DNA from: a bacterium
Lineage (GTDB): Bacteria > Patescibacteriota > Minisyncoccia > UBA6257 > GWB1-50-10
Direction: 5' to 3'
DNA length: 64,000 nt
Assembly: GCA_021825465.1 (NCBI GenBank)
Contig: JAKAGX010000001.1
Span: forward strand, 5,347-69,346
Shown here piece after piece: positions 8,766 through 51,678 of the stretch; within the stretch, counting starts at the first letter, position 1, and every line of letters starts with the position of its first letter. The notes below the pieces were generated by a model. That model was not told where the DNA came from. It worked only from the letters and a program-made list of their open reading frames with translations, and did not search any database. The position numbers and the translations under genes were made by a program.

Positions 8766-8767
8766 GT

Positions 8768-9550: not shown

Positions 9551-9904
9551 CTATTTTGTGGGGCTCGCTTCGTGAAGCGAAAACCAGAACGTTATTTTTT
9601 TGAAGACGAGATTGGAAAGTTCCTCGATCTCAGCAGTCGTGGAAACCGCCGCCGATCCGTCCCCAACCGGCAATCCGATAATAAGCGCCGTCCCGAACGC
9701 AAGAAGAAGGATGACAATGACCGCAAATGCGGAACCGGCAAGCGTCCCATTCCCCGAAGATGCGGACGACGCAAAAACGCCGTTCGTCAAAGGACAAGCG
9801 AAACCGCAGGAAGAGCTCCCCCCGAGCACCTTAAAATTCAAAAATCCAAAGACCGCCGATCCGAGGAACAGCACCGAAAGGATTATGGCGGCGGTTTTGA
9901 ACAT
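9551..9904 (-). CDS. Hypothetical small membrane protein
   Basis: It has two hydrophobic helices and a Ser/Gly-rich loop containing 'CGFAC'. The start at the internal Met (MFKTAAII) is chosen over the longer track ORF. Confidence 0.3.
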   Translation of the reverse strand: MFKTAAIILSVLFLGSAVFGFLNFKVLGGSSSCGFACPLTNGVFASSASSGNGTLAGSAFAVIVILLLAFGTALIIGLPVGDGSAAVSTTAEIEELSNLVFKKITFWFSLHEASPTK

Positions 9905-24494: not shown

Positions 24495-24521
24495 ACTAAC
24501 TACTATATACCAAATACTCGT

Positions 24522-35315: not shown

Positions 35316-36977
35316 CTATAATACCCTATCTTGATAACATTCTTCGCAGACGATTTTCTGATATCCCCACTCCGGCGGATAGTAATGGATGATCGGCCTC
35401 GAGCAGAAAAAGCACATTCCTTCATACGGCGTCGTGACCGTCAGGGGTTTCATGCGCTCCAGGTTGCGCCGATCTGGATGGCGGCTCGGCAAAGGTATGC
35501 CCTGTTCTTTATAAAACGCAAGTTCCTGAGGCGCTATGTTGAACCGCCATTTAGTTTCGGGGCAAACGATCGCTTGCTTCGAAAAATCGTTGTCGACGCC
35601 GTCAATGACATCCGGAACCTCATCGCCCGATATACCTTCATAGGCCTGGTCTTGAATGTCTTCCCACAAGCCGCCTTTTTCCTCTATGGATTCGCGCGTC
35701 TCGGGGAAATACATTTGCCCGGTCGACAGGTTGTATCCGCAGTAAGCCAGCGAATATGGGAAGAACGTCCCCCACGTTCCGTCGGCGGTCATTCGGTCTT
35801 TGATCTTTTTTACAAGATCGTTGTATTCCGACTCCGAATACTGCTTGTTCAAAATACAGTACTTCTTCTTCCGCAAGCCGACGCATCCGAAACAGTACTC
35901 GCATTCTTCGCAATATTCGAGGTAGGCGCTGTAGCGGCAATTGCCGCACCGGGACGTGGCAACGGTCCCATAATTATATCCATCCATCATGCTCAAAGCC
36001 GCGTTCTCGGCGATGGTGCCTGCCGCATGGACAACCTCGCGCTGTTCGTAGCCGCGAAGGAGATAGTAGCCATTCTCGGACTTTTGGGCGAAGTACGATT
36101 CTTTGCAATTCTTGCATTCTTCAAGGAAATTCCCGGTTGAATCGACAACTTTGAGGTTGCGGTCCGCCTTATGAATGACCTCGCGGGCGACGACATCGGC
36201 AAATTCCTTCTTCAATCGCTCGACCTCCCGCCTTGAGTTCAAGCGATACTCTTTCATCTTCTCAAAATATCCCTCCTTGGAATACTGCTTGTTCAGGATG
36301 CAGTATTGTTTATTCCTCAAATTCCAGCACATAAAGCAGTTCTTCACGTTCCGGCAATCATAGAGAAACGCGCTGTCCATACTGTCGCGCGCATCGAAGG
36401 AATGTCGGACCTTGTACGACTTGAAGCAATAGGTGCAATCATACGAACGCTCAACATCGAAGCAGAAGGTGAGATCCGTTGAATTTTTGCAATTCACCGT
36501 ACGGTAGGCATAGTTCACTTCTTCGCAGTCGAGCATCGATCGGCAGAGGTAGCAATTCTTGCAGCTCCAGGCATCGTCGCTCCAATCGCAATTCGTGCTC
36601 ATGGTCCCCGACCGGTGGGGATGCGGCGTTTTTCGCTGGACTTCCGCATACTGCTCGAAGAACGGCCGTGAGAAGTCATACGATCTGCCGTATTGCAACG
36701 GATCCCACACGTCCGACATCCACTCGTCGTAATCGTAGAGCGGGAAGGGCGTTTTTTCCGAGAACGTCGTGATGATGGTTTTCCCGGAGAGTGCCGACGT
36801 CGTTTTGCGGAATTTGCCGAAAACCCAGAAAGCCGTAAGGTTCTTCCAAATGCAAACATGACATTCCTGGGGCACCGGGATCCCGGTTTTTTCATAGAGA
36901 ACAAGACTGTCCGGCGGAACCGAGAATTCCTTTCTACACGTCTTACATATTTTTGTTTCTTCCCCTCCCATACTCAA
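35316..36977 (-). CDS. Cys-rich zinc-ribbon repeat protein, array paralog 7 (divergent member)
   Basis: The 553 aa ORF has a degenerate N-terminus, 'CKTCRKEF ... YEKTGIPVPQECHVC'. It keeps the central 'NLRNKQYCILNKQYSKEGY' and 'GLRKKKYCILNKQYSESEYNDL' modules. The C-terminus is truncated. Confidence 0.8.
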   Translation of the reverse strand: MSMGGEETKICKTCRKEFSVPPDSLVLYEKTGIPVPQECHVCIWKNLTAFWVFGKFRKTTSALSGKTIITTFSEKTPFPLYDYDEWMSDVWDPLQYGRSYDFSRPFFEQYAEVQRKTPHPHRSGTMSTNCDWSDDAWSCKNCYLCRSMLDCEEVNYAYRTVNCKNSTDLTFCFDVERSYDCTYCFKSYKVRHSFDARDSMDSAFLYDCRNVKNCFMCWNLRNKQYCILNKQYSKEGYFEKMKEYRLNSRREVERLKKEFADVVAREVIHKADRNLKVVDSTGNFLEECKNCKESYFAQKSENGYYLLRGYEQREVVHAAGTIAENAALSMMDGYNYGTVATSRCGNCRYSAYLEYCEECEYCFGCVGLRKKKYCILNKQYSESEYNDLVKKIKDRMTADGTWGTFFPYSLAYCGYNLSTGQMYFPETRESIEEKGGLWEDIQDQAYEGISGDEVPDVIDGVDNDFSKQAIVCPETKWRFNIAPQELAFYKEQGIPLPSRHPDRRNLERMKPLTVTTPYEGMCFFCSRPIIHYYPPEWGYQKIVCEECYQDRVL

Positions 36978-36995
36978 TACTATATACCAAATATC

Positions 36996-38759
36996 TTATA
37001 CTATCTCTTTCTGGTAGCACTCCTCGCAATACACGATTTCCGGCTTCTCCGGAGCGTACGAGGTTTCAAATTCCTTGGAACATTTTCTCGAATGACCGTG
37101 GCTTTGGTTGTCACACATACACCCGCGGTGCCAGAGCTTCATGGGCGTTCGTTTCTTGAGACGTCCGTAGTGCCGGCAATTCGGGCAAAGCGTCGGGAGC
37201 GGAATATTCATTTTTTTATAGAACGCGAGTTCTTCCGGCGTGATGCGGAATGCTTCCGTGCATTGCTCTTCGCATTTCCCTTCGTGTGCACAACCGATCG
37301 TTTCTTTTACGACATCGTCCGAAACAATGCGGATGGTATCGGGCAAGTCGGTCGGTTTCAGGGTTATTCCATAATTCCGCGTTTCCGGATCGCGCCACTG
37401 GTACCCCATTGCCGTTGCTTTTTCTTTCGTCGAAGGGAAATACTCCTCGGCCACCGTCTCGTTGTATGCAAAAAGGGCGATTTCCGGCGGGAAAAACTCG
37501 CCGAAACCGTACCGCACTCCCCTTTTATCGACATACGGCATCTCGTCCATGTGTTTTTTAATTTTCGGGAGAAGTTCTTCATATTCCTCCTCCGAGTATT
37601 GCTTGTTCAAAATGCAATACTCCTTGTTCCGCATACCGTAGCAGCCAAACATATTATGCGACCCGTGCGTATGGACGCTCCACCACACGTCGCTCGAATC
37701 ATAGACCACGACACCGCCCACGATCCTCGACGAGCTGTTGATATCGACGCCTTCGTAGAGGAGTTCCGACTTCCAGCCGGCCCCCGGCCCGCAATCGTAT
37801 ATTCCCTTGCTTCCGAATCCGCTCCAGTTCACATACCGGCAATCTTCCGTGTTATCGCCCACGAAATCGAAGCAATCCCGGCAGTTCTTCGTATTCTGCA
37901 AATGATCGCCGGTCGAACCGACCGAATTCACGATGTCCGCATACTTATGGATCGCCTTCACATACACCTCATCCTGGAATTTCCGTCGGACTTCTTCGAG
38001 GGCCTTCCGGCTTCCAAGGTTCAGTTCCTTGACTCTCTTTTCGTATTCATCCTTCGATATCTGCTCATTGAAAATACAATATTGCTTATTTCTCAAATTC
38101 GCACATCCGATGCAGTCCCGGCAGTTCTTGCAGTTGTAAAGGAACCAGGAATCGCTGCAACCCTCGCAGTTCGAGGAATACAAGAGCCGGTACGAACCGC
38201 TGACGTACGAATCATCGTAGCAAAGCTCGCTGCCGTCGACGATATAGAGATCGAGCGAATCCTTGTCCTTCACCATACGGTTCGCATACATCACGTTCTC
38301 GTTCCATCCGCCGGCGGAAACGAGGTGACAGTTCTTGTTCCACGCGGCGGAGCTGCAATATTCGCTATTCACCGAATTCGTGTTCGAAAGCGCGATCAAG
38401 GGCACGCGGTGCAGGAGCTCCGCATACTGTTCGAAAAACGGCTTCGAGAAATCGTATTCCTTGCCGTATTGCATCGGATCCCATGCGTCGCTCCACCAAT
38501 ATTTTTGATCGTATACCGTATACGGTATATCTGCCGGATGAAGACTGATGACGTCTTCCGTATGTCCCGGCGCATTGCATTTCCGCTTATAGTACGTGCG
38601 CTCGTTCCGCCACACCATCCGCCGCGCGGCGCGGCATTCCGGACACCACGTGGGCGCCGGTACGCCGATCTGTCGGTAAAAATCAAGATCAGCGGGGTCG
38701 ATTTGAAACCCCCTTCCGCAATTCCTGCATATTCGGCCCTCTGAATTCATTGAGTTCAT
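36996..38759 (-). CDS. Cys-rich zinc-ribbon repeat protein, array paralog 8
   Basis: The 587 aa ORF has the same architecture. Its start codon is directly abutted by an upstream hairpin and U-tract. Confidence 0.85.
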   Translation of the reverse strand: MNSMNSEGRICRNCGRGFQIDPADLDFYRQIGVPAPTWCPECRAARRMVWRNERTYYKRKCNAPGHTEDVISLHPADIPYTVYDQKYWWSDAWDPMQYGKEYDFSKPFFEQYAELLHRVPLIALSNTNSVNSEYCSSAAWNKNCHLVSAGGWNENVMYANRMVKDKDSLDLYIVDGSELCYDDSYVSGSYRLLYSSNCEGCSDSWFLYNCKNCRDCIGCANLRNKQYCIFNEQISKDEYEKRVKELNLGSRKALEEVRRKFQDEVYVKAIHKYADIVNSVGSTGDHLQNTKNCRDCFDFVGDNTEDCRYVNWSGFGSKGIYDCGPGAGWKSELLYEGVDINSSSRIVGGVVVYDSSDVWWSVHTHGSHNMFGCYGMRNKEYCILNKQYSEEEYEELLPKIKKHMDEMPYVDKRGVRYGFGEFFPPEIALFAYNETVAEEYFPSTKEKATAMGYQWRDPETRNYGITLKPTDLPDTIRIVSDDVVKETIGCAHEGKCEEQCTEAFRITPEELAFYKKMNIPLPTLCPNCRHYGRLKKRTPMKLWHRGCMCDNQSHGHSRKCSKEFETSYAPEKPEIVYCEECYQKEIV

Positions 38760-38795
38760 TATAAAACAAATGCTCCGCGGTTAAACGCAGAGCAT
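38760..38795 (-). terminator. Intrinsic terminator candidate for the MFS/hypothetical island, abutting the start of paralog 8
   Basis: On the minus strand the stem AUGCUCUGCG-uuuaac-CGCGGAGCAU has one mismatch. It is followed by UUGUUUUAUAA and then immediately by the ATG at 38759. Confidence 0.45.
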
Positions 38796-38820
38796 CGAAA
38801 CAATCACAAACAGGAGGACG

Positions 38821-39264
38821 TCACATCTTCATGGAGCTGACAACGATGATCCCGCCGAGGATCGGATCTTCCTCTTCCTTGGATTCGAAAGAAATGATCT
38901 TCCAGTCCGATCGCAAGCTCAGATCGTCATATTCGGCATCGCCGAGTTCGGCGTGCACCGACGACCAAAACACCTTGCGAAGAATATCCGCCTTGTCCAT
39001 GAGAGCGCGGTAATCGCGGAAAACCTTCTCACACTCTTTTTCCATGCCATCGCCGCCGAAGAGGAACCGAGCGTGTTTCTGCTCATGATCCTTCTTCATC
39101 TTGCTTGCCTCTTTGGCAAGTTTGGCATGAAGAGAATAGGTCCGCTTCAAGTCGTCATTGACCTCTAGCATTACGCGACCTTCCGGGTAGGGACCTTCCG
39201 CTACCGGCTTCACGATTGTAGTATTGTCGATCTCCTTTTGGAGATCTTGGAGAAATGTGGTCAT
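38821..39264 (-). CDS. Hypothetical protein (island within array)
   Basis: The 147 aa ORF has no recognised motif. Confidence 0.45.
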   Translation of the reverse strand: MTTFLQDLQKEIDNTTIVKPVAEGPYPEGRVMLEVNDDLKRTYSLHAKLAKEASKMKKDHEQKHARFLFGGDGMEKECEKVFRDYRALMDKADILRKVFWSSVHAELGDAEYDDLSLRSDWKIISFESKEEEDPILGGIIVVSSMKM

Positions 39265-39331
39265 AAACCACCTCCTTGATTAGTGAAAAAATATGTTTAG
39301 TTACAGGACCATACTATAAGCTATTTTTACG

Positions 39332-40585
39332 TCATTTGTCAACCTCCGTCCGCCTCTTGCCGAAAAAGCGGACGTAGAGATACATATTTGCGGCCATAAC
39401 GGCGCCATACGCAAAAAACGGGATATCAAGGAGTGCTGCATCCATGAGATAGCCGGCGAGCCCCGTGCCGGCCGAGGATGCCGCAAGCCGCGCAACTTGG
39501 TTCACGCCGAGCGCGCGGCCCATTTCATCGCCATCCACCCGGCGCGTAAGTTCCGCCTGCTGGATCGGAAGCGCCATGATGCGGAGCGCCGGCCCAAAAA
39601 CGTACACGAAAACGGCAAAAGGCAGGAAACGAATGATCGGGAAAGCGACGAAGAGAGCCGTTCCGATCCCCCTGCTCCACACCATGCTTTTTACGAATCC
39701 GAGATGTTTTTCGAGAAGCGGCGCCGCGAGAATGGCAACGGACCCGACAACGCCCGAGAGAAAAGCGTATTCCGCCATTTGTGATTTTGGAATGTTATAA
39801 ACCAAAAGAAAGAACGGGATGAGGAACGGAACGATGAGGCCTTGCGAAAATCCGTTCAAAATGCCGGTCAAGGTGAATTTTCCGATGGTCGTTTTCGTCT
39901 TCAAAACGCGGAGCTTGCCCTTGGATTCCGTAACTTCGATGAACGGCAATGCAACGACACCCAATGCCGCGACAACGGTCGCAATGAGAAAAATATCTTG
40001 GACCGAGAAAACTTTCGCAAAGAGCGCGCCGACGGCCGCCACGATGCCCGAGAGGAAGGTAAAGAAGGAAAAGTATTTCGTCCGTTTTTCGCTCGGCGTG
40101 AGTTCCGTGATGACGGTGTTTTGGATCGGTTGGACCGCACCGCCGATGCCGCCGCCGGCCAAGGATCCCGTCGCGGAATACCCCCCCACCATCGCTGCAA
40201 GGAATACCACCCACAAACTCGATGAAAAATATACCAAGGCGGAGCTCACCGGCAGGAGGGCGCTTGCGATGAAAAGTGTCCCCCGCTTCCCCCACACGTC
40301 GGTCGTGATGCCGGCAAGGAAGCTCAAGACTGCCGTCGCGATCGTCGCCGCGACGTAAATAAGGCCGATCATCCCGGCGCTTTGATGAAGGTCGACCAAC
40401 ACGTAGTACGGAAATGCAATATTGATCATCCCGGCCGCAATGCTCCGGGTGATCCTTGAAACCATAATAAGGTAAATGCCTTTTTTCTTGGGCCTTAGTT
40501 CAGTTTCCACAGTAAGAACGATTATACCATACCGAGCGGAGTCGGGTGGTATAATAAGAATGATGAAAAGCCGCGAGAATGCCAT
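39332..40585 (-). CDS. MFS transporter
   Basis: It has about 12 TM and the MFS loop motif 'TDVWGKRG'. Confidence 0.7.
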   Translation of the reverse strand: MAFSRLFIILIIPPDSARYGIIVLTVETELRPKKKGIYLIMVSRITRSIAAGMINIAFPYYVLVDLHQSAGMIGLIYVAATIATAVLSFLAGITTDVWGKRGTLFIASALLPVSSALVYFSSSLWVVFLAAMVGGYSATGSLAGGGIGGAVQPIQNTVITELTPSEKRTKYFSFFTFLSGIVAAVGALFAKVFSVQDIFLIATVVAALGVVALPFIEVTESKGKLRVLKTKTTIGKFTLTGILNGFSQGLIVPFLIPFFLLVYNIPKSQMAEYAFLSGVVGSVAILAAPLLEKHLGFVKSMVWSRGIGTALFVAFPIIRFLPFAVFVYVFGPALRIMALPIQQAELTRRVDGDEMGRALGVNQVARLAASSAGTGLAGYLMDAALLDIPFFAYGAVMAANMYLYVRFFGKRRTEVDK

Positions 40586-40778
40586 TTACGACACCGCCAA
40601 ACTCGCCAAATTCTTCGGCGTGACCGAACGAACCGTTCTCGAATGGTGCCGGAGAGGAAAGCTTCCGGCTTTCAAGATCGGCAAACAATGGAGGGTGCGG
40701 GTTATCGATCTCCAAAAAATGATCGATCGCAAGGTGACGACCCGGCGAGATTCGCGCTATACCACTTCGCTGTTGTAG
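40560..40778 (+). CDS. Excisionase-family/MerR-like helix-turn-helix DNA-binding protein (small)
   Basis: The sequence 'IYDTAKLAKFFGVTERTVLEWCRRGKLPAFKIGKQWRVRVIDLQKMI' fits the excisionase-type HTH pattern. It is the only plus-strand ORF there. It overlaps the MFS 3' end and the start of paralog 9, so it is uncertain. Confidence 0.4.
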   Translation: MMKSRENAIYDTAKLAKFFGVTERTVLEWCRRGKLPAFKIGKQWRVRVIDLQKMIDRKVTTRRDSRYTTSLL

Positions 40779-42448
40779 CACTGTTCACAGTACACGATCT
40801 CGGGTCTCTCCGGAGAAAAGCTCGTCTCGAATTCATTGGGACACTTCCCCGAATGGCCGTGGTTCGGCCTGTCGCACATGCACGAACGATGCCAGAGCTT
40901 TACGGGATTTTTGAGCCTCAAACGATCCTTAAGCCGGCAGAAAAAACATTTCCGAGGAACCGGGATGCCGTTCCGCTTGTAGAATGCGAGTTCCTCGGCG
41001 AGGATCTTGTAATTCCTGCTGCATTCGGCGCAGGCAAGGATCTCATTCACGATCGAGTCCGGAACACCGGCGATCGCGTCGGGGATCTCCCGCATCGTTT
41101 CTTTCCCCGTCGTGAACTGAAGCTTGTCCTGCCACCGGTACCCCTCCGCGAGCGCTTCTTCTTTCATAAGCGGATAGCTATCTTCTGCCAGCGTTTCGTT
41201 GTATCCGAATGTCGAGAGCGATGCCGGAAAAAATTCCCCCCATTCCCCCTTCCTTTTCATATCCTCGACGATTTCCGTCTTGATTTTTTCATATTCCTCC
41301 CTCGAATATTGCTTGTTTAGGATGCAATACTTGGCACTTTTGAGCCCCACGCACCCGAAGAGTTCTTCCGACGATTGGCAGCTGTCGGAGTACCAGACAT
41401 TCCGATCCTTGTGGCAATACGAAGTGAAATGCGTATTATACGAGTTGTCCGGATTGATCCCTTCATAGCACAGTTCCTGCTCGCCGCCGCTTGCACAATC
41501 ATAGCTGTCTTTGATGGTGTCGCCGTTCTCGAAGAACTTCGAATCTTCAACGCGGACGGCATTCCAAGAATTCTTGGCGTTTTTGGAATTCACGAGATAG
41601 TTGCCGGTGCAGTTGACCGAGTTCATAAAATTCGCCGGACGGCGCGGAAATCCCAGAATAAAATCGAAGAATTCCTTCTTGGCCCGCTCCGATCCGCTCC
41701 ACGTATCGAGCTGGTACTCCCCGAGGATTTTCTCATATTCTTCCTTCGAATATTGCTGATTTTTCACACAGTACTTTTTATGACGGAGGCCGATCGACAT
41801 GAAACAGCTAGTGCAATCCTTGCAATCGTAGCAGAACGCGCAATCGATGAGCGATTCGGAATTGAAAACGAACCGGCACGAATTACTGTCCCCCACGTAG
41901 ATCGATTCGTAGATATTCCGCGCATTCGAAAAGACCGTCATCACGTCCACCATATCCTTCGCGTTCACCATATGGTAGCAGTAGAGGCAGTTTTCCACCT
42001 TCCATGAGTTCATGGTGAGATAGCAGTTTTTGCCGAGGGCGAAATAGTTCGTATATTCGCACCCGACGCTCGCGATGTTGTTGTCGTTCAGGATCGCGAG
42101 AGCCGGCACGGCATCGAGAAGCTTCCGATATTGTTCGAAAAACGGCCGTGAAGGATCATACTCACGCCCGTACTGCCCGGGGTCCCAGCCGTCGCCCCAC
42201 CAGCACTTGTTGCAATAGATCGGAACGGGTTTCTCCGGCGAGTAGATGGAGATGATCTTCCGGCCGCAGAGCCCGCATTCGCGGTTGTAGAAATTGTAGT
42301 CGTTCCGCCACGCGAGCCGCCGCTGTCGCCGGCAGTCAGGACAAAAAGTCGGCGCCGGCACCCCGATGCGGTTGTAAAAAGAAAAGTCGTCGGGTTCGAC
42401 GATGAAATCCCGATGACAATTTTGACAAACCTTCTTTTCGGAAAGCAT
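40757..42448 (-). CDS. Cys-rich zinc-ribbon repeat protein, array paralog 9
   Basis: The 563 aa ORF has the same architecture. It shares the 'gtaaaataaacATG' leader with paralog 1. Confidence 0.85.
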   Translation of the reverse strand: MLSEKKVCQNCHRDFIVEPDDFSFYNRIGVPAPTFCPDCRRQRRLAWRNDYNFYNRECGLCGRKIISIYSPEKPVPIYCNKCWWGDGWDPGQYGREYDPSRPFFEQYRKLLDAVPALAILNDNNIASVGCEYTNYFALGKNCYLTMNSWKVENCLYCYHMVNAKDMVDVMTVFSNARNIYESIYVGDSNSCRFVFNSESLIDCAFCYDCKDCTSCFMSIGLRHKKYCVKNQQYSKEEYEKILGEYQLDTWSGSERAKKEFFDFILGFPRRPANFMNSVNCTGNYLVNSKNAKNSWNAVRVEDSKFFENGDTIKDSYDCASGGEQELCYEGINPDNSYNTHFTSYCHKDRNVWYSDSCQSSEELFGCVGLKSAKYCILNKQYSREEYEKIKTEIVEDMKRKGEWGEFFPASLSTFGYNETLAEDSYPLMKEEALAEGYRWQDKLQFTTGKETMREIPDAIAGVPDSIVNEILACAECSRNYKILAEELAFYKRNGIPVPRKCFFCRLKDRLRLKNPVKLWHRSCMCDRPNHGHSGKCPNEFETSFSPERPEIVYCEQCYNSEVV

Positions 42449-42541
42449 ATGTTTATTTTACCCTAAATCACGATCCAAAACGAAAAGACGTTGAATTATT
42501 TTAATTTATCGATCGATCATCATTATGTCGAGTTATCCCCA

Positions 42542-42589
42542 AAATTTCGGTCCCCGAGGGGTTTTAAAGGAGAGAGGGAGCCGAAATTT
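42542..42589. promoter_or_regulatory. Imperfect inverted repeat in divergent intergenic region (possible operator)
   Basis: aaatttcggtcccc ... gggagccgaaattt has 12 of 14 bases complementary around a 20 nt spacer. A 10 bp perfect palindrome, atcgatcgat, lies at 42508-42517. The region is between the paralog 9 start and the plus gene at 42689. Confidence 0.35.
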
Positions 42590-42688
42590 GAAGTGCTACA
42601 TTTCCAACGATCGTATTTTTTGTGGCACTGAGATTGAGGGCTCATACCAGTAATTGAAAAATATCCAAAAGAGAAGGAAAATAATGGC

Positions 42689-43921
42689 ATGAACCCGGAA
42701 CGGATAACCCAGCCTATAGAAACCGAGAATAGGGAGGAACGAGAAAGAGAACTCGCCAAGCGGCTGACTGCCCTTGAGGTCCATTTTGCGAACGTACGGT
42801 ACCAGGATCAAGTTACCGAAAGAGAAAGGATCTATTCCGATTTCAGTGATTCACTTAATAAAAACACTCCCATCATAAGAAGGATGCTTAATAGATATTC
42901 CAATACCGTCCATGGAGATAAGGAGGAGAACCAGAAATTGAAATCATTCGCAACTTTTTTCCTCCACGAAGTTGATAGGATATATCAAGAAACGCCGAAT
43001 CGGGAACGGAGGGAGGAACTGATCACTCAGTATGTCTTCGATGCTTACGCCAATTTAAAAAAAGAAGAACCGAGCAAAATCGAAAGAATGATAGAAAAAG
43101 ACACAACCATCGGAGTTATAAAAGTGGAGCCCGGAACACACGAAAACCGCCGTATGGCGGAAGCGGGATTCGGCCCGGAGGAGGAATTCCTACCGATCCA
43201 CTTCCCCGCCTTCTACGAGAGCGGGCCGGAAAAATCGCTGCTTACAGAAATCAATGCGTCATTCACCCAACTTGCCGAAATAGTCCCACAAAAATATCCC
43301 GAAGCACGGGGAATCATCGGCGAATCGTGGCTCCTTTCCCTTCCCGCCGCAGAACGACTCGGATTCAAAAAGGTCATGACGCTCGAAAACCGGTTCGACG
43401 GCGACAGCCTCTGGTCCCAATTCATCGATCAAAACGGAAACATCAGCAAAAGCCGGTTCGATGAGTTCATGAGAACGGGCAAGCCGCCATATGCCGTGAC
43501 GCTCAGCTACATTCCCATCGAAGAATTCTTGAGCAAATACCTTCCGTCGGAGAAAAAAGGAGAGATACTGCTGAAGGAAATAGACCCGGAATGGAAAAAA
43601 GAAGACGCCCGAGAACTGGAAAAATACACGGACGAAGCTCACCGGCTAAGAAGCGACTGGGGAAACTTCGTTGAAGACAAGAATCTTTCTGTGGAAGAAT
43701 TCATGAAAACCTACCCCGCCATCGTGAGCATCATGACCAAAGCAGGTTGCTATGACGACCTCCTGAAGGTTCTCTCCGAGGCAAAAAACAGAAAACACAA
43801 TCTCCAAGAAATGGTGAAAATAATGCCTGCGGAAAGCGAAAGAATCGAGAGAGCGTACACGGAATACGTAAAGAATCTAAAAAGCAGAAAATACCGGGAC
43901 CGTAAGGTTTTTATAAAATAG
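42689..43921 (+). CDS. Hypothetical protein (plus-strand gene inside array region)
   Basis: The 410 aa ORF is charged and helical with no recognised motif. Confidence 0.5.
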   Translation: MNPERITQPIETENREERERELAKRLTALEVHFANVRYQDQVTERERIYSDFSDSLNKNTPIIRRMLNRYSNTVHGDKEENQKLKSFATFFLHEVDRIYQETPNRERREELITQYVFDAYANLKKEEPSKIERMIEKDTTIGVIKVEPGTHENRRMAEAGFGPEEEFLPIHFPAFYESGPEKSLLTEINASFTQLAEIVPQKYPEARGIIGESWLLSLPAAERLGFKKVMTLENRFDGDSLWSQFIDQNGNISKSRFDEFMRTGKPPYAVTLSYIPIEEFLSKYLPSEKKGEILLKEIDPEWKKEDARELEKYTDEAHRLRSDWGNFVEDKNLSVEEFMKTYPAIVSIMTKAGCYDDLLKVLSEAKNRKHNLQEMVKIMPAESERIERAYTEYVKNLKSRKYRDRKVFIK

Positions 43922-44549
43922 TCTTCAGCTCCGACAGACTATTTACCGTTTTCCAAGCAGTCTTTTCGAGTTCCTCCGAATCAGGTGATTTAAGAGCAAT
44001 GCCCCGCATTGTTTCAAAAAGACTTATATCATTCACGCTGTCGCCCACAGCAATACACTCCTCAGGTCTCAAATCCCGCTCATCGCAGAATTTCTCGAAC
44101 TGTTCCAGCTTCTTGACAGCTTGGTTTTTGAAATATTCGAAGTCAACCAACTTTCCATCTTTATCCCAAACGAGCGTAGCATTTGCGAAATAGCAATCAA
44201 TACCCAACTTCCTCGCCACGATCTCCGCAAAGAGGTCCGTGGAGCCAGTGATGAGACACGGCACAATCTTTCTCTCCTCCAAGCAACCGATGATTTCCTT
44301 CGCACCATCCGCAAGAGGAATATCGTCGTATAAAGATGTAAAGAATTCTTTATTATCCTTTTCTGTCCTTGCCCACATATCGAGCAGTTTGTGCTTTGAA
44401 TCTTCATAATCATCGCCGTCCCCATCCAGCATGTCGCGGTAAAACTGGCGGTGATCATCAACAGACGCGCCCATGGCCTCTGTGATCGCGATCCACGAAT
44501 TCCCCTTCACGAGCGTCCCGTCAATGTCAAAGATAACCGCTTTTATCAT
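43911..44549 (-). CDS. HAD-family hydrolase (phosphoserine-phosphatase-like)
   Basis: It has HAD motif I 'VIFDIDGTL' and motif IV 'AVGDSVNDISL'. The start was moved to the internal Met. It forms an ATGA overlap with the stop of paralog 10. Confidence 0.7.
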   Translation of the reverse strand: MIKAVIFDIDGTLVKGNSWIAITEAMGASVDDHRQFYRDMLDGDGDDYEDSKHKLLDMWARTEKDNKEFFTSLYDDIPLADGAKEIIGCLEERKIVPCLITGSTDLFAEIVARKLGIDCYFANATLVWDKDGKLVDFEYFKNQAVKKLEQFEKFCDERDLRPEECIAVGDSVNDISLFETMRGIALKSPDSEELEKTAWKTVNSLSELKTIL

Positions 44550-46246
44550 AAAACAATAGATTGATAGCACTTGTTGCAATAAACGATCGAGGCCTCCTTC
44601 TCGGGATACCGCGAAACGAACTGGATGCCGCACTTCGAGCAGGTGCGCGGATGCCGAGCCATATTTCCGAGCCACAGTTTGAATTTCTCATTGACGCGGC
44701 AGAAGGGACATTCACGGGGCAGCGGCAGGTCCATGTGGCGCAGGAACGAGAGTTCCGCAGGAATCAGTTTGAATCCCCGTCCGCATTTCGAGCAACCGAT
44801 AACCTCATTCAAAATACCATCCTTCGCATCCCGGATGTGGTCAGGCAGATCGGCGGCCGGAATCGTCGTTTGAAATTCACTCTTCGGCAGATTGCGCCAC
44901 TCATACCCCCTTTCTGCGGCTTTTTCTCTCGAGAGCGGGACAAAACAGTTGGCATCCGATTCGTTGTAGGCGTTCGGCGAAAGCTCGACGGGAAAAAACT
45001 CGCCATACCGGTATTCCCGCCCCTTCTTGTCCCGGTAAACATTCGCGTCCATATCCTTTTTGATCCGCTCGGCCAGTTTTTTATACTCTTCCTTCGGATA
45101 TTTCTTGTTCAAGATGCAATACTCCGCCTTCTTCATCCCGGCACAGCCGAAACAATGGGAACTCGAGGTAAGCGTTTTGCAGTATTCCAAATCTTCTCCC
45201 TTCATAACCTCCTGGCTGAATCTGATGTTCGAACTTTGATTGCCGACAACCGAAGCGTCATACGAAAGAGAAAGGTTTTCTCCCCAATAGGTTATGTCGT
45301 AGCTGTCCGCTATGCCGTCGGATACCATGCTCACGTACCGGCAGTTCTCGCCGTCATTCACCTGGAACGAATCTTTGACGTTCTTGGAATCATAAATGTG
45401 CGCTCCCCAGCAATCGACGTTCCGGTCGCCGAATTCCGCTTTCGGAATCTGCGTCGCCCAAAACGCTTCGGCTTCATGGAGCGCTCTTTGGTATCCCTCG
45501 TACGACCCCAGATCGTATTTCGCGATCTCTTTTTGATATTCTTCTTTCGAGTATTGCTTGTTCTTGATGCAATATTTCTTGTTCTTGACGCTCGCACACA
45601 TACGGCAATCCTGGCAATTCGAAGCATCTTTCATGAAAGCGCAGTTCAAGAGTTCCACGGCGTAGTTCCGGAGGCCGATCCCGCGATTGCATCTCCATGC
45701 ATGCATCGAATCATAGAGCCATTCCGAATTGAGGCAGAGAGTGCAATCCCAAACGGATTTATCATGTTCCACATAAAACCCGTATGCGGAGTCCTCGACG
45801 TAATTCGCCTGGTAGAGAAGATAGCAATTTTTGAGATTCGCGGCATTGCTCGTATAGGGGGAATCCTTCGATGTCTGGATGTCGACGGATAACCCCAAAA
45901 GCGGCACTTTGTGCATCAAGTCGTCGAACTGTTCAAGAAACGGCCGAGAAGGATCATATTCCCTCCCCTCCGCATACTGGTCCCATCCGTCACCCCACCA
46001 GCATTCGGGACAATAAACAACATAGGGCGCATCGGGCGCATACACCGAGATCACGTTTTTCTTGCAAAGATCGCACCTCCGTTTGAAGAGATTGAAGGTA
46101 TTGAACCATGCGAGCCGCCTTTCGAGCCGACACTCGGGGCAAAAGGTCGGCGGCGGGACTTGGATTCGCTCATAGAACGAGAAATCCTCGGGTTCGATGG
46201 TGAACTCCTTTTTGCAGTTTTGGCAGGTTTTGATTTCAGTATTCAT
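44546..46246 (-). CDS. Cys-rich zinc-ribbon repeat protein, array paralog 10 (C-terminal variant subfamily)
   Basis: The 566 aa ORF has the canonical N-terminus. Its C-terminus differs, 'CPFCRVNEKFKLW ... CSKCGIQF ... YCNKCYQSIVL', and is shared with paralog 13. Confidence 0.85.
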   Translation of the reverse strand: MNTEIKTCQNCKKEFTIEPEDFSFYERIQVPPPTFCPECRLERRLAWFNTFNLFKRRCDLCKKNVISVYAPDAPYVVYCPECWWGDGWDQYAEGREYDPSRPFLEQFDDLMHKVPLLGLSVDIQTSKDSPYTSNAANLKNCYLLYQANYVEDSAYGFYVEHDKSVWDCTLCLNSEWLYDSMHAWRCNRGIGLRNYAVELLNCAFMKDASNCQDCRMCASVKNKKYCIKNKQYSKEEYQKEIAKYDLGSYEGYQRALHEAEAFWATQIPKAEFGDRNVDCWGAHIYDSKNVKDSFQVNDGENCRYVSMVSDGIADSYDITYWGENLSLSYDASVVGNQSSNIRFSQEVMKGEDLEYCKTLTSSSHCFGCAGMKKAEYCILNKKYPKEEYKKLAERIKKDMDANVYRDKKGREYRYGEFFPVELSPNAYNESDANCFVPLSREKAAERGYEWRNLPKSEFQTTIPAADLPDHIRDAKDGILNEVIGCSKCGRGFKLIPAELSFLRHMDLPLPRECPFCRVNEKFKLWLGNMARHPRTCSKCGIQFVSRYPEKEASIVYCNKCYQSIVL

Positions 46247-47988
46247 GCCACTTCGCTGTTATAGCACTGTTCGCAGTACACGATCTCGGGGCGATCCGGC
46301 GCATACGAGGTTTCGAATTCATTCGAACATCTCCCCTCCGGATGATGCGTATGTTCTCCGGAATTTTTATATATCTTGTAATCACACATGCACTGTCGCG
46401 CATAGAGCTGGACCTTGTTCCTTTGCGATATTCGAGCCGCATGACGGCAGTCCACGCATGTCCTCGGCAACGGGATCCCTTCGGCGCGCAGAAAGTCGAG
46501 TTCCGGACGGATGATCCGGTAGGCGCGCTTGCACCTCTCGCATGAAATGATCTTCGAAAGAATATCATCTTGAACGTCGCGGATGGAATCGGGAAGCTCG
46601 GACGCATTCATACTCGTTTCGTATTCCTTGCTTTCCGGATCATCCCACGCGTATCCTTTCGCGAGCGCTTCTTCTTTGGTAAGCGGAAAGTGATCAAATA
46701 CTAACGAGGAGTTGTAGCCGAAGGGGGCGTGCTCGATCGGGAAGAATTCGCCGTAGCGATAGATAATTCCCTCCGTATTTACATAGGGATCCTCGTCCAT
46801 GTGTTTTCTGATCTTCTGAACCAATGCCTCATACTCCTCCTTTGGATACTGCTTGTTCAGGATGCAGTATTGTTTATTCCTCAAGCCCACGCATCCGAAG
46901 CAGTTCGAGGAATTTTTCATGAACATGCAATATTCAAGATCCGAATTTTCCGGCCAACACTCCACGCAAAATTTAAGGCGGGAAATATCCCCTCCGCAGA
47001 TCGATGTTTCGTAACAAAGATCCGTGTTCTTTCCCCAAATCGAAACATCCATAGAATCTTTGGTGGACGGCTCGTTTAGATCTTGGCAATGACGGAGATC
47101 TTCCCCTCCCCGTATGAGGTAACCGCGGTAAACATTTTTGGAATTGGAGATGTATTCACCGAGAACATTCGCATTGTTCGTCCCGGTCATATATCGTACG
47201 GGAGAACCAAGCCAGAATTTTTTGACTCTATTCTTCATCTCCGACACCGAAGTCCATTTATCCAAGCGGAGCCGATCGATTCTCTTCTGATACTCTTTTT
47301 TGGACAATTTCTCGTTAAAGAAGCAATAGCTTTGATTCCTTAAATTGACACACCCGAAGCAATTGATGCATCCCCGGCAGTTCCGGGAGAACCAAACGCC
47401 GGTGCAATCCTCGCACTGGGAGGAAAAATGGGTCTGATGGCAAGACGTATGCCAGAAGGATTCATAGCACCGCTCGCATTTTTTCACGTGGGAGCTTTCA
47501 AAACAGTCCCTCGAGAAATCCACTTGGTTGCCATAGGCGCAGTTTTCCGCTCCCGAACAGTTGAAGACCAGGTAGCAATCCTTCGACCAGCCGATATTCG
47601 CGGTAAAATCCGAGCGCACATTCGACTCCGTAGATCGTGGTACCCGCGGCACGGCCTGCGCAAGTTCATATATCTGTTCAAAAAAGGTCTTATGTTCGTC
47701 GATATCTCTGCCATACTGGAGAGCGTCCCAGTCATCTTCACGCCATTCATCTTCGTCATACAGGGTTACTTTAGACCCTTTAGAGTAGAGAGCGAGGATC
47801 CGCTTGCCTGATTTAACGCTCGTATTCCAAAAAATCTTCCGCTCGTTGCGATACGCAAGCCGCCGCTGGAATCGACACAGCGGGCACCATGTCGGCGGCG
47901 GGACTTGGATTCGCTCATAGAACGAGAAATCCTCCGGTTCGATGGCAAATTCCTCATGGCAATTCTGGCAGGTATGGGTTTCAGACAT
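46243..47988 (-). CDS. Cys-rich zinc-ribbon repeat protein, array paralog 11
   Basis: The 581 aa ORF has the canonical ends. It has an ATGA overlap with paralog 10. Confidence 0.85.
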   Translation of the reverse strand: MSETHTCQNCHEEFAIEPEDFSFYERIQVPPPTWCPLCRFQRRLAYRNERKIFWNTSVKSGKRILALYSKGSKVTLYDEDEWREDDWDALQYGRDIDEHKTFFEQIYELAQAVPRVPRSTESNVRSDFTANIGWSKDCYLVFNCSGAENCAYGNQVDFSRDCFESSHVKKCERCYESFWHTSCHQTHFSSQCEDCTGVWFSRNCRGCINCFGCVNLRNQSYCFFNEKLSKKEYQKRIDRLRLDKWTSVSEMKNRVKKFWLGSPVRYMTGTNNANVLGEYISNSKNVYRGYLIRGGEDLRHCQDLNEPSTKDSMDVSIWGKNTDLCYETSICGGDISRLKFCVECWPENSDLEYCMFMKNSSNCFGCVGLRNKQYCILNKQYPKEEYEALVQKIRKHMDEDPYVNTEGIIYRYGEFFPIEHAPFGYNSSLVFDHFPLTKEEALAKGYAWDDPESKEYETSMNASELPDSIRDVQDDILSKIISCERCKRAYRIIRPELDFLRAEGIPLPRTCVDCRHAARISQRNKVQLYARQCMCDYKIYKNSGEHTHHPEGRCSNEFETSYAPDRPEIVYCEQCYNSEVA

Positions 47989-48012
47989 ACTAAATACTAT
48001 ATACCAAATACT

Positions 48013-49742: not shown

Positions 49743-51449
49743 CTATGCCGTCAATTCACTGTAGCATTTCTTGCAAAGGATGTTTTGGGCATCGTGATTA
49801 CTGATCGATGTCATAAATTCGGCCCCACACTTCGAACACGCTCTCTTTTCCATCTTCAAGTTATCGACCCATATATCGATCTTCTTATTGATCCTGCAAA
49901 AAGGACATTCGCGGGGCAACGGATAATTCATCTTCCGAAGGAACTCCAATTCATCCCTTGTTATTCTGAACCCCCGGCCGCATCGAGCGCAACCGATGAT
50001 CTCGCTTAAAATTGAATCCGGCGCATCCTTGATATGATCCGGCAGATCGGCGGCTTTTTTCGTCACCTCGTATTCTTTTTTTTCAAAAGCACGCCATCCG
50101 TAGCCTTCGTCGCGCGCATCGCGCTCGGTCATCGGAAAAAAATTTTGAGCCAACGTCTCGTTATATGCGAACGTGCTCATTTCGATCGGGAAGAATTCCC
50201 CATATCGATACACCCTGCCCTTCCGATCGGTGTACGGCATGTCCATCATATGTTGGCGTATTTTCGGAACGAGAGCATCGTATTCCTCGGGGGTATATTG
50301 CTTGTTTAAAATGCAATACTGCCCCTTTTTAAGGGAAATGGATCCGAAGACATGTGCCCCGCCGTAAATGAGAAATGAATATTCGGAGTCGACCAAATTC
50401 AATCCCGACCCATAATTGAATTTCACTTCGCTCGCGTTTTCACCGACATTCGGCGAATCGTAGGAAAGCGTGAGATTATTTCCCCAGCTTGTAATGTCGT
50501 AGCAATCTTTCGTTCCCGGAAGGTAGAGCATCGCGAGATACTTTGAATTTTCTGCGCCCAAAACTTCGTAGCATTCCTTGCAATTCCGCGATTGGAACAC
50601 GTTGTTCCCCGTGCAGTTTTCGGTAAATTCATCGAAGACCGGCTTCGGCGGGAACTTTTTCCAATGCTCTTCGGCAAGCTTCTGGATCTCTTGATACTCG
50701 CGATACGACCCGAGGTCCCATCTTTTGATCTCTTTGAAATATTCTTCTTTTGAATACGGCTTGTTGAAAATATAGTATTTTTTATTCCTTAAATTGACCG
50801 AAGCGAAACAATTTTGGCATCCCCACGAATATTTCAAGAAGTATGAATCGATCGACTCCGTTACTTGCCCTCGAAGGCCGGCACATCGGGTGCATCGGTA
50901 TGTATGCATCGAATCGTAGCAAAGCTCCGAATTCATGATGAGCGATGAGTCGAAGACCGACCTGCTCTCTGTGACGTAAAAGCCGTACGCGGAATCCTCG
51001 TCGAAATCGGCGTGAAAGAGCATATAGACATTCTTGTTATTGCCGCTCAAGTGTGAATACGGCGAGGTCTTCAGGGTCATAAAATCCGTCGAGAGCGCCG
51101 GAAGCGGGGCTTCGCGCACAAGGTCCTTGAATTGTTCGAAGAAGGGCCGCGAAAAATCGTAATCGCGGCCGTAATCGCGGGGATCCCACGTATCACTGAA
51201 CCAGCAAGGCAAACAAAAAACCCGGTAGGGTGCGTCAGGCGCGTAAACAGAAATAGTATCCTTGCTGCACAAGTCGCACTTCCGCTTATAGAGGTTGATG
51301 ACATTCATAAACGCCAAGCGCCGCTTTTCGCGGCACTCGGGACAAAACGTCGGCGGAGGGACTTTTATCCTCTCATAAAAAGCGAGATCCTCAGGCTCAA
51401 TGACAAATTCGCGGCGGCAGTTCTGGCAAACTTCTTTCCGGGGACCCAT
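49743..51449 (-). CDS. Cys-rich zinc-ribbon repeat protein, array paralog 13 (5'-most; C-terminal variant subfamily)
   Basis: The 568 aa ORF has the canonical N-terminus and the variant C-terminus 'CPFCRINKKIDIW ... CSKCGAEF ... CKKCYSELTA'. Confidence 0.85.
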   Translation of the reverse strand: MGPRKEVCQNCRREFVIEPEDLAFYERIKVPPPTFCPECREKRRLAFMNVINLYKRKCDLCSKDTISVYAPDAPYRVFCLPCWFSDTWDPRDYGRDYDFSRPFFEQFKDLVREAPLPALSTDFMTLKTSPYSHLSGNNKNVYMLFHADFDEDSAYGFYVTESRSVFDSSLIMNSELCYDSMHTYRCTRCAGLRGQVTESIDSYFLKYSWGCQNCFASVNLRNKKYYIFNKPYSKEEYFKEIKRWDLGSYREYQEIQKLAEEHWKKFPPKPVFDEFTENCTGNNVFQSRNCKECYEVLGAENSKYLAMLYLPGTKDCYDITSWGNNLTLSYDSPNVGENASEVKFNYGSGLNLVDSEYSFLIYGGAHVFGSISLKKGQYCILNKQYTPEEYDALVPKIRQHMMDMPYTDRKGRVYRYGEFFPIEMSTFAYNETLAQNFFPMTERDARDEGYGWRAFEKKEYEVTKKAADLPDHIKDAPDSILSEIIGCARCGRGFRITRDELEFLRKMNYPLPRECPFCRINKKIDIWVDNLKMEKRACSKCGAEFMTSISNHDAQNILCKKCYSELTA

Positions 51450-51649: not shown

Positions 51650-51678
51650 ATTATATCACAAATATGATGAAAAATCAA
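51650..51678 (-). promoter_or_regulatory. Sigma70-like promoter (TTGATT-17-TATAAT), near-leaderless for the 51640 start
   Basis: On the minus strand the -35 is ttgatt (51673-51678), the spacer is 17 nt and the -10 is tataat (51650-51655). The ATG is 9 nt downstream of the -10. Confidence 0.55.

Follow-up and report, generated by a model that had tools for sequence, protein, structure and literature searches.

Where a tandem array of paralogous genes is interrupted by unrelated genes, the question arises whether the intervening genes were brought in by a mobile element or belong to the locus as old constituents. In the analyzed stretch of 64,000 nucleotides (the window), 13 minus-strand paralogs (W1 to W13) of 553-603 aa each form such an array, which spans positions 24522-51449. 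The products of about 570 aa look cytoplasmic and combine zinc ribbons with a beta-solenoid. Island 1 fills the gap between paralog 8 (36996-38759) and paralog 9 (W9, 40757-42448, minus strand) and contains a 147 aa ORF and an MFS transporter gene on the minus strand and an HTH_17 ORF on the plus strand. Island 2, between paralogs 9 and 10, consists of a 410 aa ORF on the plus strand and a HAD gene on the minus strand. The gene positions given for both islands in the initial annotation were found to be correct. Its description of the 410 aa gene as the only sizeable plus-strand gene holds for the gene itself but not for its sole status, as the HTH gene is a second real plus-strand gene; plus-strand ORFs larger than the 410 aa gene, such as that of 683 aa at 36693-38744, are located opposite conserved genes of the paralog array.

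Since tandem paralogs are hard to assemble and paralog 9 is present as two ORFs in L003, the interruptions could be suspected to be an assembly artefact, i.e., misjoined repeats in a metagenome bin. Such an artefact is extremely improbable, because six independent assemblies of this organism from different samples all show one and the same gene order, the junction sequences are kept in other species, and the identity among the paralogs (30-50%) is far too low for assembly collapse. Non-orthologous paralog pairs are 30-57% identical, which means that the duplications are old. The W9 orthologue in L010 is broken into ORFs of 426 and 143 aa. In the window, W9 has a -10-like TAAAAT 6 nt upstream of its ATG, and because it is divergent from the 410 aa gene it would represent a transcription unit of its own.

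Within island 1, the MFS transporter (39332-40465, minus strand, 377 aa, dN/dS about 0.07) was recognized by PF07690 (97 bits, E 1e-27), and its best NCBIfam matches are far under their cut-offs. The longest ORF begins at 40585, but the Pfam match (MFS_1) starts at residue 42 of that ORF, orthologues with 87-94% identity align from MVSR... (ATG 40465) and the 40 extra codons represent promoter DNA which is also found upstream of a PAP2 phosphatase gene in the related locus L017; the start is most likely 40465 rather than 40585. Of the two overlaps described for the HTH gene, the one with paralog 9 (22 bp, between both 3' ends) was confirmed, whereas the one with the MFS gene is only apparent and derives from the longest ORF start.

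The HTH gene (40560-40778, plus strand) encodes an excisionase/MerR-like HTH_17 protein of 72 aa (PF12728, E 9e-15), which is 80-93% identical in relatives and shows dN/dS values of 0.03-0.2. Between the HTH and MFS genes lies a palindromic twin promoter and candidate operator (40521-40555, both strands) with two back-to-back TGGTATAAT boxes, 17 bp apart, of which the minus-strand box (40529-40521) faces the MFS gene and the plus-strand box (40547-40555) the HTH gene; the palindrome can be read as two extended -10 boxes in perfect inverted repetition. The HTH mRNA is probably leaderless, because ATG codons follow the -10 box after 4 and 7 nt. Five exact sites of TGNTATAAT were counted in the 64 kb (0.69 expected), all of them upstream of genes. 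Four loci share an invariant palindrome core, among them L017 with PAP2 facing instead of MFS, and the HTH gene is always accompanied by the palindrome. This invariance, the facing MFS or PAP2 genes and the low dN/dS fit the earlier suggestion of a local regulator: most likely, the HTH protein would bind the palindrome and repress both promoters. MFS transporter genes that diverge from the gene of a small DNA-binding protein at one short inverted-repeat region are also known from BmrR-bmr and TetR-tetA; in contrast to those regulators, the HTH protein has no ligand-binding domain and stands outside the TetR and full-length MerR families.

Like the small MerR-like or excisionase-type HTH proteins (Xis/AlpA/TorI and BldC of Streptomyces), the HTH protein consists of just one HTH_17 domain, about 70 aa long. 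The best PDB matches are weak and comprise 6ama/6amk, which we take to be BldC-DNA complexes, and the phage protein Gp37 (4j2n), presumably a phage Xis. Weak NCBIfam matches point to BldC and 'excise' (TIGR01764, 31.1 bits, cut-off 28.8), and PHROG excisionase families were matched at E 1e-8. With these matches, the varying module positions among relatives and the low GC3 of the HAD and 410 aa genes, the islands might be taken for remnants of an integrated mobile element, the HTH_17 protein being its excisionase (recombination directionality factor). We regard this as very unlikely. As already noted in the initial annotation, the window is free of integrases and transposases according to Pfam scans of the approximately 38 largest ORFs, and the gene tables of the related loci L010, L011, L017 and L018 contain no recombinase Pfam match. 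Searches for att-like flanking repeats around the islands and for tRNAs found none. GC3 and codon usage of island 1 are native, and its dS values versus L010 (0.64-0.82) lie inside the 0.35-1.1 range found for the flanks, which are vertically inherited. Unlike excisionases, the HTH protein is accompanied neither by a partner integrase nor by att sites; its gene is always tied to a -10-box palindrome that faces a transporter or phosphatase gene, an arrangement as expected for a repressor that acts locally and controls its own gene. The changing positions are explained by recombination inside the 3' codons of the paralogs. The earlier idea of inserted islands with past integration or excision is thus not borne out, also because both modules are present in relatives.

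The third gene of island 1 (38821-39264, minus strand) encodes a soluble, acidic orphan protein of 147 aa (dN/dS 0.07-0.16), for which no match in Pfam, NCBIfam, PADLOC, PHROG and PDB, no hydrophobic segment and only four clusters among 5.8 billion proteins were found. It has its own promoter, leader and Shine-Dalgarno site (39271-39342, minus strand), with TTGACA-18-TATAGT at 39342-39313 (11 of 12 consensus matches) and AGGAGG at 39276-39271, which are kept in four loci irrespective of whether the upstream gene encodes MFS or PAP2. The gene is followed by a predicted intrinsic terminator (38759-38796, minus strand), composed of an 11-bp G+C-rich hairpin (38796-38769) and UUUGUUUUAU, with a folding energy of -19.2 kcal/mol (z -2.8). 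The terminator is likewise kept in four loci, where two base pairs of the stem have both partners exchanged and the stem core contains no broken pair, a covariation drawn from two independent sequence types only. Its tail contains TATAAT (38766-38761), 7 nt upstream of the second ATG (38750) of paralog 8. Island 1 (module B) may be regarded as a self-contained cassette, in which the HTH and MFS genes would be transcribed from opposite arms of the palindrome and the 147 aa gene from its own near-consensus promoter with its own Shine-Dalgarno site, and which the terminator would end just ahead of the next paralog's own start.

In island 2, the HAD-IB phosphatase (43911-44549, minus strand, 212 aa) exceeds the cut-off of TIGR01488 (72.2 bits, cut-off 45) and matches the phosphoserine phosphatase (PSP) of Methanocaldococcus jannaschii (PDB 1f5s, E 2e-13) across residues 3-180. 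All four catalytic motifs common to both enzymes are intact (D8xD10xT12, LITGS 99-103, K146/147, GDSVND 169-174), and the protein is predicted to be a catalytically competent small-molecule phosphomonoesterase. It differs from SerB, whose equivalog cut-off of 144 bits is not reached (62 bits), nor are those of ThrH and archaeal PSP-like proteins; unlike PSP genes, it is not placed in a serine pathway but stands as last cistron after two zinc-ribbon paralogs. The claimed ATGA stop/start overlap with paralog 10 (W10) is present at 44546-44549 on the minus strand (...GTT TTA TGA / ATG ATA AAA; HAD ATG 44549-44547, W10 TGA 44548-44546) and recurs in L011 (CTATGATC). From 16.8 to 51.4 kb, 21 junctions join genes of the same strand, and 6 of them are overlaps of 4 bp, including W11/W10, W4/W3 and W3/W2; such overlaps are therefore no peculiarity of the HAD gene. 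A TANNNT box ending 4-10 nt upstream of the ATG precedes 20 of the 33 starts that follow a gap, compared with 5% of all ATGs, and genes joined by overlaps have neither this box nor a Shine-Dalgarno site; for the HAD gene, too, neither a Shine-Dalgarno site nor a promoter box of its own was found.

We propose W11-W10-HAD as a transcription unit (44546-48006, minus strand) with ATGA overlaps at both junctions, and the HAD gene is probably its last cistron. The only promoter box would be that of W11 (46243-47988, minus strand), a -10 box TGGTATATAGT at 48006-47996, 7 nt upstream of the ATG; as it directly precedes the ATG, the mRNA would be leaderless. At the ATGA overlaps, translation of W10 and HAD would probably start by termination-reinitiation, and transcription would then run into the convergent 410 aa gene, whose 3' end overlaps that of the HAD gene by 11 bp (43911-43921). 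Together with the missing own signals and the overlap kept in L011, where the HAD protein is 76% identical and both the ATGA junction and the 11-bp overlap are identical, this set-up fits the proposed translation of HAD along with paralog 10.

The 410 aa gene (42689-43921, plus strand) encodes a clade-restricted protein with only seven known homologues, in which helical N- and C-terminal parts flank a central alpha/beta domain whose fold resembles that of GNAT proteins. A sequence-level match to GNAT acyl-CoA N-acyltransferases (e.g., TacT/KacT-type toxins, Naa50/60) was not found; the Q/RxxGxG/A acetyl-CoA loop is not recognizable by inspection, and the helical extensions are large and additional in comparison with these enzymes. 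Upstream lies a promoter-like site TTGAAA-17-GAAAAT (42654-42682, plus strand) which is kept in relatives: the 40 bp ahead of the ATG are conserved in L010 (22/22 identical at the TTGAAA end) and L011. The gene would be expressed from this conserved promoter of its own, convergent to HAD.

Comparison with relatives allowed the history of both modules to be traced. W10 orthologues are 83% (L010), 77% (L011), 85% (L017) and 85% (L018) identical, and W13, W7, W1, W9, W8, W11, W12 and W6 have orthologues as well (78-92%). The gene orders are W10o-HAD-<410-<MGMT in L011, W13o-W1o-<HTH-MFS-144-W7o-W10o-<410-<MGMT in L010, W13o-W12o-W10o-<HTH-MFS-PAP2-145 in L018 and W11o-W10o-MFS-<HTH-PAP2-145-W8o in L017. 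The HTH/MFS/147 module thus recurs in three relatives beside different paralogs, with a PAP2 phosphatase gene following MFS in relatives, and the W10-HAD-410 module (module A) recurs in L011, which makes it ancestral because L011 is the outgroup by W10 identity. With respect to islands at identical positions in distant relatives, as considered in the initial annotation, both modules are retained, but they do not always adjoin the same paralogs. Each module includes a phosphatase gene, HAD in the window and PAP2 in relatives, next to a transporter, which could reflect a common function.

Whether the HAD protein, and possibly also the GNAT-like 410 aa protein, is a dedicated partner of W10, with a stoichiometry fixed by the ATGA coupling, is doubtful. 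The zinc-ribbon/beta-solenoid protein could, for example, handle a product, a cofactor or a modification that the HAD enzyme dephosphorylates, and the partnership would agree with overlaps (W10-HAD and HAD/410) kept despite saturated synonymous sites (dS 2.7), with a HAD gene lacking expression signals of its own, with a 410 aa gene adjoining the W10 orthologue even in the HAD-less L010 and with the second phosphatase type, PAP2, in the other module of relatives. Against it, HAD was not found beside the W10 orthologues on the fetched contigs of L010, L017 and L018, which are short and metagenomic, so that HAD, 410 or MGMT could lie elsewhere; in L010 just 14 nt separate W10o from the 410 aa gene, with a weak resemblance to the HAD ends. 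More distant W10-type orthologues (61-65% identity) stand as single genes, accompanied by neither HAD nor 410, and a scan of 185,579 species genomes yielded a close HAD relative only on the contig of L011. No relative of any island protein was found in 80 loci from other Parcubacteria in which the paralog family is represented (at 49 of them by two or more paralogs), homologues of the 410 aa protein are also encoded at the unrelated loci L007, L013 and L015, and 4-bp overlaps are usual in this genome. Since HAD is missing on the contigs of three relatives and island genes are missing in the 80 loci, the functional tie to the array is weak, and translation along with the array does not mean working with it. 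Module A would be the tail of the three-cistron unit, and HAD is most likely an operon passenger instead of a partner dedicated to the paralogs.

Purifying selection acts on every island gene (dN/dS 0.03-0.2). Among 36 genes tested, GC3 is lowest in the HAD and 410 aa genes (0.535 and 0.550, compared with 0.59-0.72), whose codon usage is also the most atypical among genes of at least 600 nt; module A may be of old foreign origin. Paralogs adjoining the HTH gene all end in ...SEVV, including the W10 orthologue of L018, whereas other W10-type proteins end in QSIVL. The array would evolve by duplication and homologous recombination between paralogs, breakpoints could fall in the conserved C-terminal YCxxCY codons, and such recombination would move, bracket or delete modules. 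As the comparison covers about five lineages, parsimony had to be used to order the rearrangements. In Patescibacteria, the VirB2 pilin arrays (PMC12102498) likewise consist of divergent tandem paralogs, sometimes split by unrelated genes, and close relatives differ in the number and order of the copies; the W array differs in that the repeated protein is a zinc-ribbon/beta-solenoid protein of about 570 aa and no pilin, and that the interrupting genes are conserved modules with their own promoters and terminator.

The islands are genuine, and we consider it fairly likely that they represent old accessory modules in a locus specific to this clade, not mobile-element insertions, and that recombination between paralogs relocates or deletes them. 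The interrupted array is a real but largely ordinary finding.

The array lies on a chromosomal stretch of a member of the Patescibacteria (Parcubacteria-type) and is surrounded by housekeeping genes, among them those for PPDK, AsnRS, ComEC, MnmA, SecDF and TGT. It comprises 13 minus-strand genes (24522-51449; W1 to W13, numbered by coordinate) encoding zinc-ribbon/beta-solenoid proteins of 553-603 aa, which are 30-50% identical to each other. The gene order is identical in six independent assemblies, and the arrangement is therefore not an assembly artefact. The family counts over 5,700 members; neither a Pfam model nor a solved relative of it was found, the Pfam searches returned weak treble-clef zinc-finger matches at both ends of the paralogs, and a literature search yielded nothing on the family or on the two modules described below (HTH/MFS/147 and HAD/410). 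W10 (44546-46246) and W13 (49743-51449) form a distinct subfamily with 50% mutual identity and 34-41% identity to the remaining paralogs. It corresponds to the form of about 568 aa found at about 50% identity in other Parcubacteria, and the nearest W10-type homologues outside the clade are 61-65% identical and occur singly in their contigs. The remaining 11 paralogs look like a lineage-specific expansion.

Signs of decay were observed in individual paralogs as well. The W9 orthologue is split into ORFs of 426 and 143 aa in the related metagenomic contig L010 (6089-7797), its counterpart in L003, from a variant strain of the window's organism, into 376 and 167 aa (8070-9760), and in the related contig L018 (7766-8215) an internal deletion leaves only 149 aa of the W7 orthologue. 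Long plus-strand ORFs run antisense to W8 (36693-38744, 683 aa) and W10 (44561-45892, 443 aa). Both are probably a codon-bias artefact; the former exceeds in length W8, the real gene it shadows, and such ORFs would mislead gene callers that favor the longest reading frame.

The initial description was largely correct: two groups of unrelated genes interrupt the array, and all five genes were found where the initial annotation had placed them. Island 1, between W8 and W9, consists of genes for a 72 aa HTH protein (HTH_17), an MFS transporter and a 147 aa protein, and island 2, between W9 and W10, of genes for a HAD phosphatase and a 410 aa protein. The view that these genes were inserted, with the HTH hinting at past integration or excision, is not supported. 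Pfam scans of about 38 of the largest ORFs of the window detected neither integrase nor transposase, as already noted initially, the genes listed for the four related loci gave no recombinase match in Pfam, and no tRNA is present in the window. Around both islands att-like repeats are lacking, the only exact repeat being a 16-nt one in the YCNKC codons of W9 and W10, and PADLOC and PHROGs revealed no defence-system or phage context past generic HTH and HAD matches. A genomic island or integrated element was rejected for want of a recombinase, tRNA or att boundary and because the composition of island 1 is native: its genes have typical GC3 and codon usage. Among 36 genes compared, the two with the lowest GC3 belong to module A (W10, HAD and 410): HAD with 0.535 and the 410 aa gene with 0.550, modestly below the 0.59-0.72 of the others. 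These two also show the most atypical codon usage among genes of 600 nt or more; the low GC3 leaves an old foreign origin of this module open.

The ratios of dN/dS (HTH 0.03-0.21, 147 aa gene 0.07-0.16, MFS about 0.07, HAD 0.055, 410 aa gene about 0.1) place all island genes under purifying selection, including the HTH ORF, for which a lack of conservation had initially been considered and which proved conserved. Between the window and L010, dS of module B (HTH, MFS and 147) is 0.64-0.82 and that of the flanks 0.35-1.1 (CutA1 0.39, W13 0.83, VirD4-like ATPase 1.1). Values within the flank range speak for vertical descent, and a recent exchange of module B, which would give dS below the flanks, was rejected since the values overlap.

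For the comparison of gene orders, contigs bearing homologues of the 410 aa or the 147 aa gene were used, which gave the four related loci L010, L011, L017 and L018. Orthologues of the paralogs (suffix o) are 77-92% identical, against the paralog background of 30-57%. In the direction of array transcription, with "<" marking the opposite strand, the window reads VirD4-like, CutA1, 62aa, W13, W12, W11, W10, HAD, <410, W9, <HTH, MFS, 147, W8, W7 and so on to W1. L011 carries VirD4-like, CutA1, 78aa, W10o, HAD, <410, <MGMT, paralog; L010 carries W13o, W1o, <HTH, MFS, 144, W7o, W10o, <410, <MGMT, a 592-aa paralog and the split W9o. The order in L018 is W13o, W12o, W10o, <HTH, MFS, PAP2, 145 and the W7o fragment, and in L017 it is W11o, W10o, MFS, <HTH, PAP2, 145, W8o. 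This recurrence identifies both islands as conserved modules with differing neighbors. Conservation at identical positions, initially proposed as the mark of stable operon members, was thus found in part: the modules are conserved in the relatives, but their neighbors differ and their positions are not identical.

By W10 identity L011 is the outgroup. It shares the ATGA overlap of W10 and HAD as well as the 11-bp convergent overlap of HAD and the 410 aa gene, which indicates that W10-HAD-410 is ancestral and that HAD was lost later in L010. There, 14 nt lie between W10o and the 410 aa gene and weakly resemble both HAD ends; as a HAD deletion scar they are suggestive only. HAD is also missing at the W10-adjacent position in L017 and L018. 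All paralogs whose 3' end overlaps the HTH gene end in ...SEVV, the W10 orthologue of L018 included, and W10-type proteins otherwise end in QSIVL. The SEVV ends at the HTH gene locate the breakpoints of recombination in the YCxxCY codons, conserved at the C-terminus, and explain how HAD, 410 and W9 could be removed or bracketed. The exact 16-nt direct repeat AGCACTTGTTGCAATA, which represents YCNKC codons on the minus strand, occurs at 42202-42217 (5' part of W9) and 44566-44581 (3' end of W10). Its two copies enclose HAD, the 410 aa gene and the beginning of W9, and could be used as a deletion substrate. The loci thereby offer a clean example of paralog recombination moving and deleting intervening genes.

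The HAD-IB phosphatase gene (43911-44549, minus strand) scores 72.2 bits with TIGR01488 (cut-off 45). Its four catalytic motifs, D8-I-D10-G-T12 (I), LITGS at 99-103 (II), K146/147 (III) and GDSVND at 169-174 (IV), are intact, as they are in the L011 orthologue. The protein resembles phosphoserine phosphatase and stays below every equivalog cut-off; an assignment as SerB is not supported, with a TIGR00338 score of 62.4 bits versus a cut-off of 144.15. The ATGA overlap between the W10 stop and the HAD start at 44546-44549 was confirmed (GTT TTA TGA over ATG ATA AAA), and neither a Shine-Dalgarno site nor a -10 box was found upstream of HAD. Overlaps of 4 bp are frequent in the window, occurring at six of 21 junctions, including W11/W10, W4/W3 and W3/W2, and the genes that follow them (W10, HAD, W3, W2) have neither TANNNT box nor Shine-Dalgarno site. 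The overlap, the lack of own signals and the conservation of the overlap support HAD as a cistron that would be translationally coupled to W10. The claim of a phosphatase co-translated with the array therefore stands at the level of sequence, but its functional link to the array is weak. In the most economical reading, W11, W10 and HAD would form one leaderless transcript, W10 and HAD as second and third cistrons would be translated by termination-reinitiation, and the transcript would end against the convergent 410 aa gene.

A survey of other lineages covered 80 metagenomic loci carrying family members, 49 of them with two or more paralogs. Their 29 between-paralog gaps hold 49 unrelated ORFs, so interruption of such arrays by unrelated genes is common. 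Recurrent gap genes are those for a VirD4/TraG-like ATPase (five), ParE toxins (three), CutA1 (two) and assorted housekeeping genes. The toxin genes, of ParE/YafQ type, lie in three array gaps among the loci of other lineages (L093-L172). No relative of HAD, MFS, HTH, the 147 or 410 aa proteins or PAP2 was detected in the gaps or elsewhere in the 80 loci, and the W10-type orthologues at 61-65% identity have no HAD or 410 nearby. When species-representative genomes were scanned with HAD, the sole close relative was that on the L011 contig; the remaining matches reach at most 32% identity and derive from unrelated phyla. By sequence comparison, the particular island genes of the window are specific to its clade. 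HAD is probably not functionally tied to the array, and the apparent phosphatase-array link is probably incidental.

The 410 aa gene (42689-43921, plus strand) encodes a protein without a sequence match in Pfam, NCBIfam or PDB, and inspection of the loop 172-184 revealed no acetyl-CoA motif A. At the level of sequence, membership in the GNAT acyltransferases is therefore not supported. Its homologues form seven clusters among 5.8 billion proteins. A promoter-like sequence of its own is conserved; ahead of the start codon only the last ~40 bp are conserved. W9 diverges from the 410 aa gene, which splits the array into several transcription units. Directly upstream of the 410 aa gene, L010 (9636-9959) and L011 (538-867) carry an MGMT-like gene (DNA_binding_1), of which no remnant was found in the window (42449-42688). 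A further 410 aa copy, 76% identical, lies at an unrelated locus (L007, 10001-11221; DAIBZB010000001.1, 465 kb), with ftsA/ftsZ and a gene for ribonucleotide reductase nearby. The window protein shares its NCBI locus-tag prefix, M1413_, and both copies may therefore belong to one genome.

In island 1, the HTH gene (40560-40778, plus strand) matches PF12728 (E 9e-15, 55.1 bits, cut-off 27) and lies just above the "excise" cut-off (TIGR01764, 31.1 versus 28.8 bits). The domain fits an excisionase or recombination directionality factor, but this candidate was rejected as no integrase is nearby and no att-type repeats flank it. A MerR-family regulator was dismissed with 16.2 bits for PF00376 (cut-off 28.2) and a length of just 72 aa. 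The HTH ORF had been described as overlapping both neighbors; the overlap with W9 (22 bp, 3' end to 3' end) stood, but that with the MFS gene did not, because the MFS start is most likely at 40465. This start is favored by the MFS_1 match, which spans only residues 42-373 of the long ORF (PF07690, E 1e-27, 97.2 bits versus 33.4; no specific subfamily cut-off was reached), and by the orthologues, whose alignment begins at that Met. The 40 codons gained by the longer reading are promoter DNA, and in L017 the same DNA precedes a different gene.

Upstream of the HTH gene lies the invariant core ATTATACCA-N17-TGGTATAAT (40521-40555), which consists of two back-to-back extended -10 boxes in a perfect inverted repeat and is unchanged in all four loci, including L017 with PAP2 in place of the MFS gene. 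Exact TGNTATAAT sites occur five times in the 64 kb (0.69 expected), always upstream of genes. ATG codons of the HTH gene follow 4 and 7 nt past the -10 box, a distance implying that the mRNA is leaderless. The conserved twin-promoter palindrome lends sequence-level support to the initial alternative of a local regulator, and from the layout we infer that the HTH would act as a small repressor on both promoters.

The 147 aa ORF (38821-39264, minus strand; 144 or 145 aa in relatives) matches no family and has homologues in four clusters among 5.8 billion proteins. It is equipped with a separate promoter (TTGACA-18-TATAGT), a leader and the Shine-Dalgarno site AGGAGG, all conserved under either upstream gene, MFS or PAP2. 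The latter, encoding a PAP2-type membrane phosphatase, lies between the MFS gene and the 145 aa gene in L017 (6965-7675) and L018 (6557-7174); neither the window nor L010 carries it, and in both the stop codon of the MFS gene directly adjoins the 147 aa gene's promoter. On the 3' side a terminator follows, with an 11-bp G+C-rich stem and the U-tract UUUGUUUUAU; four loci retain the pairing in the core of the stem, and two base pairs show compensatory changes, in a comparison of two independent sequence types. Rfam returned no known RNA in the window or the island leaders. Twin promoter, separate 147 signals and terminator together make island 1 a self-contained cassette inside the array.

Putative leaderless starts extend across the window. 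Of 33 post-gap gene starts, 20 are preceded by a TANNNT box whose end lies 4-10 nt from the ATG, compared with 5% of all window ATGs, and few post-gap genes have a Shine-Dalgarno site. The arrangement TTTGGTATATAGTA-N6-ATG is common to W11 (47996-48006), W7 (36979-36989) and the M17 peptidase gene (24502-24512), and the 62 aa gene has a -10-like box at 51650-51658. The organism thus seems to use leaderless mRNAs for the most part, the promoter-less genes being served by 4-bp overlaps; this sequence evidence is a by-product of the analysis.

The VirD4/TraG-like ATPase is the commonest gene in array gaps. Often together with CutA1, it repeatedly accompanies the paralog family (in L122, L153 and L156, among others), and a paralog is found within 1.5 kb of it in 21 of the 80 loci and in 16 of the 39 loci of at least 10 kb. 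In the window, a copy flanks the array on either side, at 52033-53487 and 16827-18551. A far-reaching reading would make HTH, MFS and 147 a movable set of transcription signals, bounded on one side by the twin promoter and on the other by the terminator with a leaderless -10 box after it, which reprograms paralog expression by recombination. The cassette may relocate between paralog junctions via recombination in the YCxxCY codons, its position may determine how the 13 paralogs are grouped into transcripts, the paralogs could be the substrate or partner set of the VirD4-like ATPase, and HAD and PAP2 may supply the phosphatase step of the same process. Taken as a whole, we regard this reading as very improbable.

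The islands represent an ordinary, well-explained architecture, made up of known gene families and two clade-restricted orphans. What had been suspected to be an integration scar is the ordinary operon layout of a compact Patescibacteria genome; the finding is of value mainly because it clears this up. Three by-products outweigh the islands in usefulness, namely the example of paralog recombination, the sequence evidence for leaderless mRNAs and the link of the paralog family to the VirD4-like ATPase. For the paralog family, this repeated association is the best lead to its function, and a testable one.
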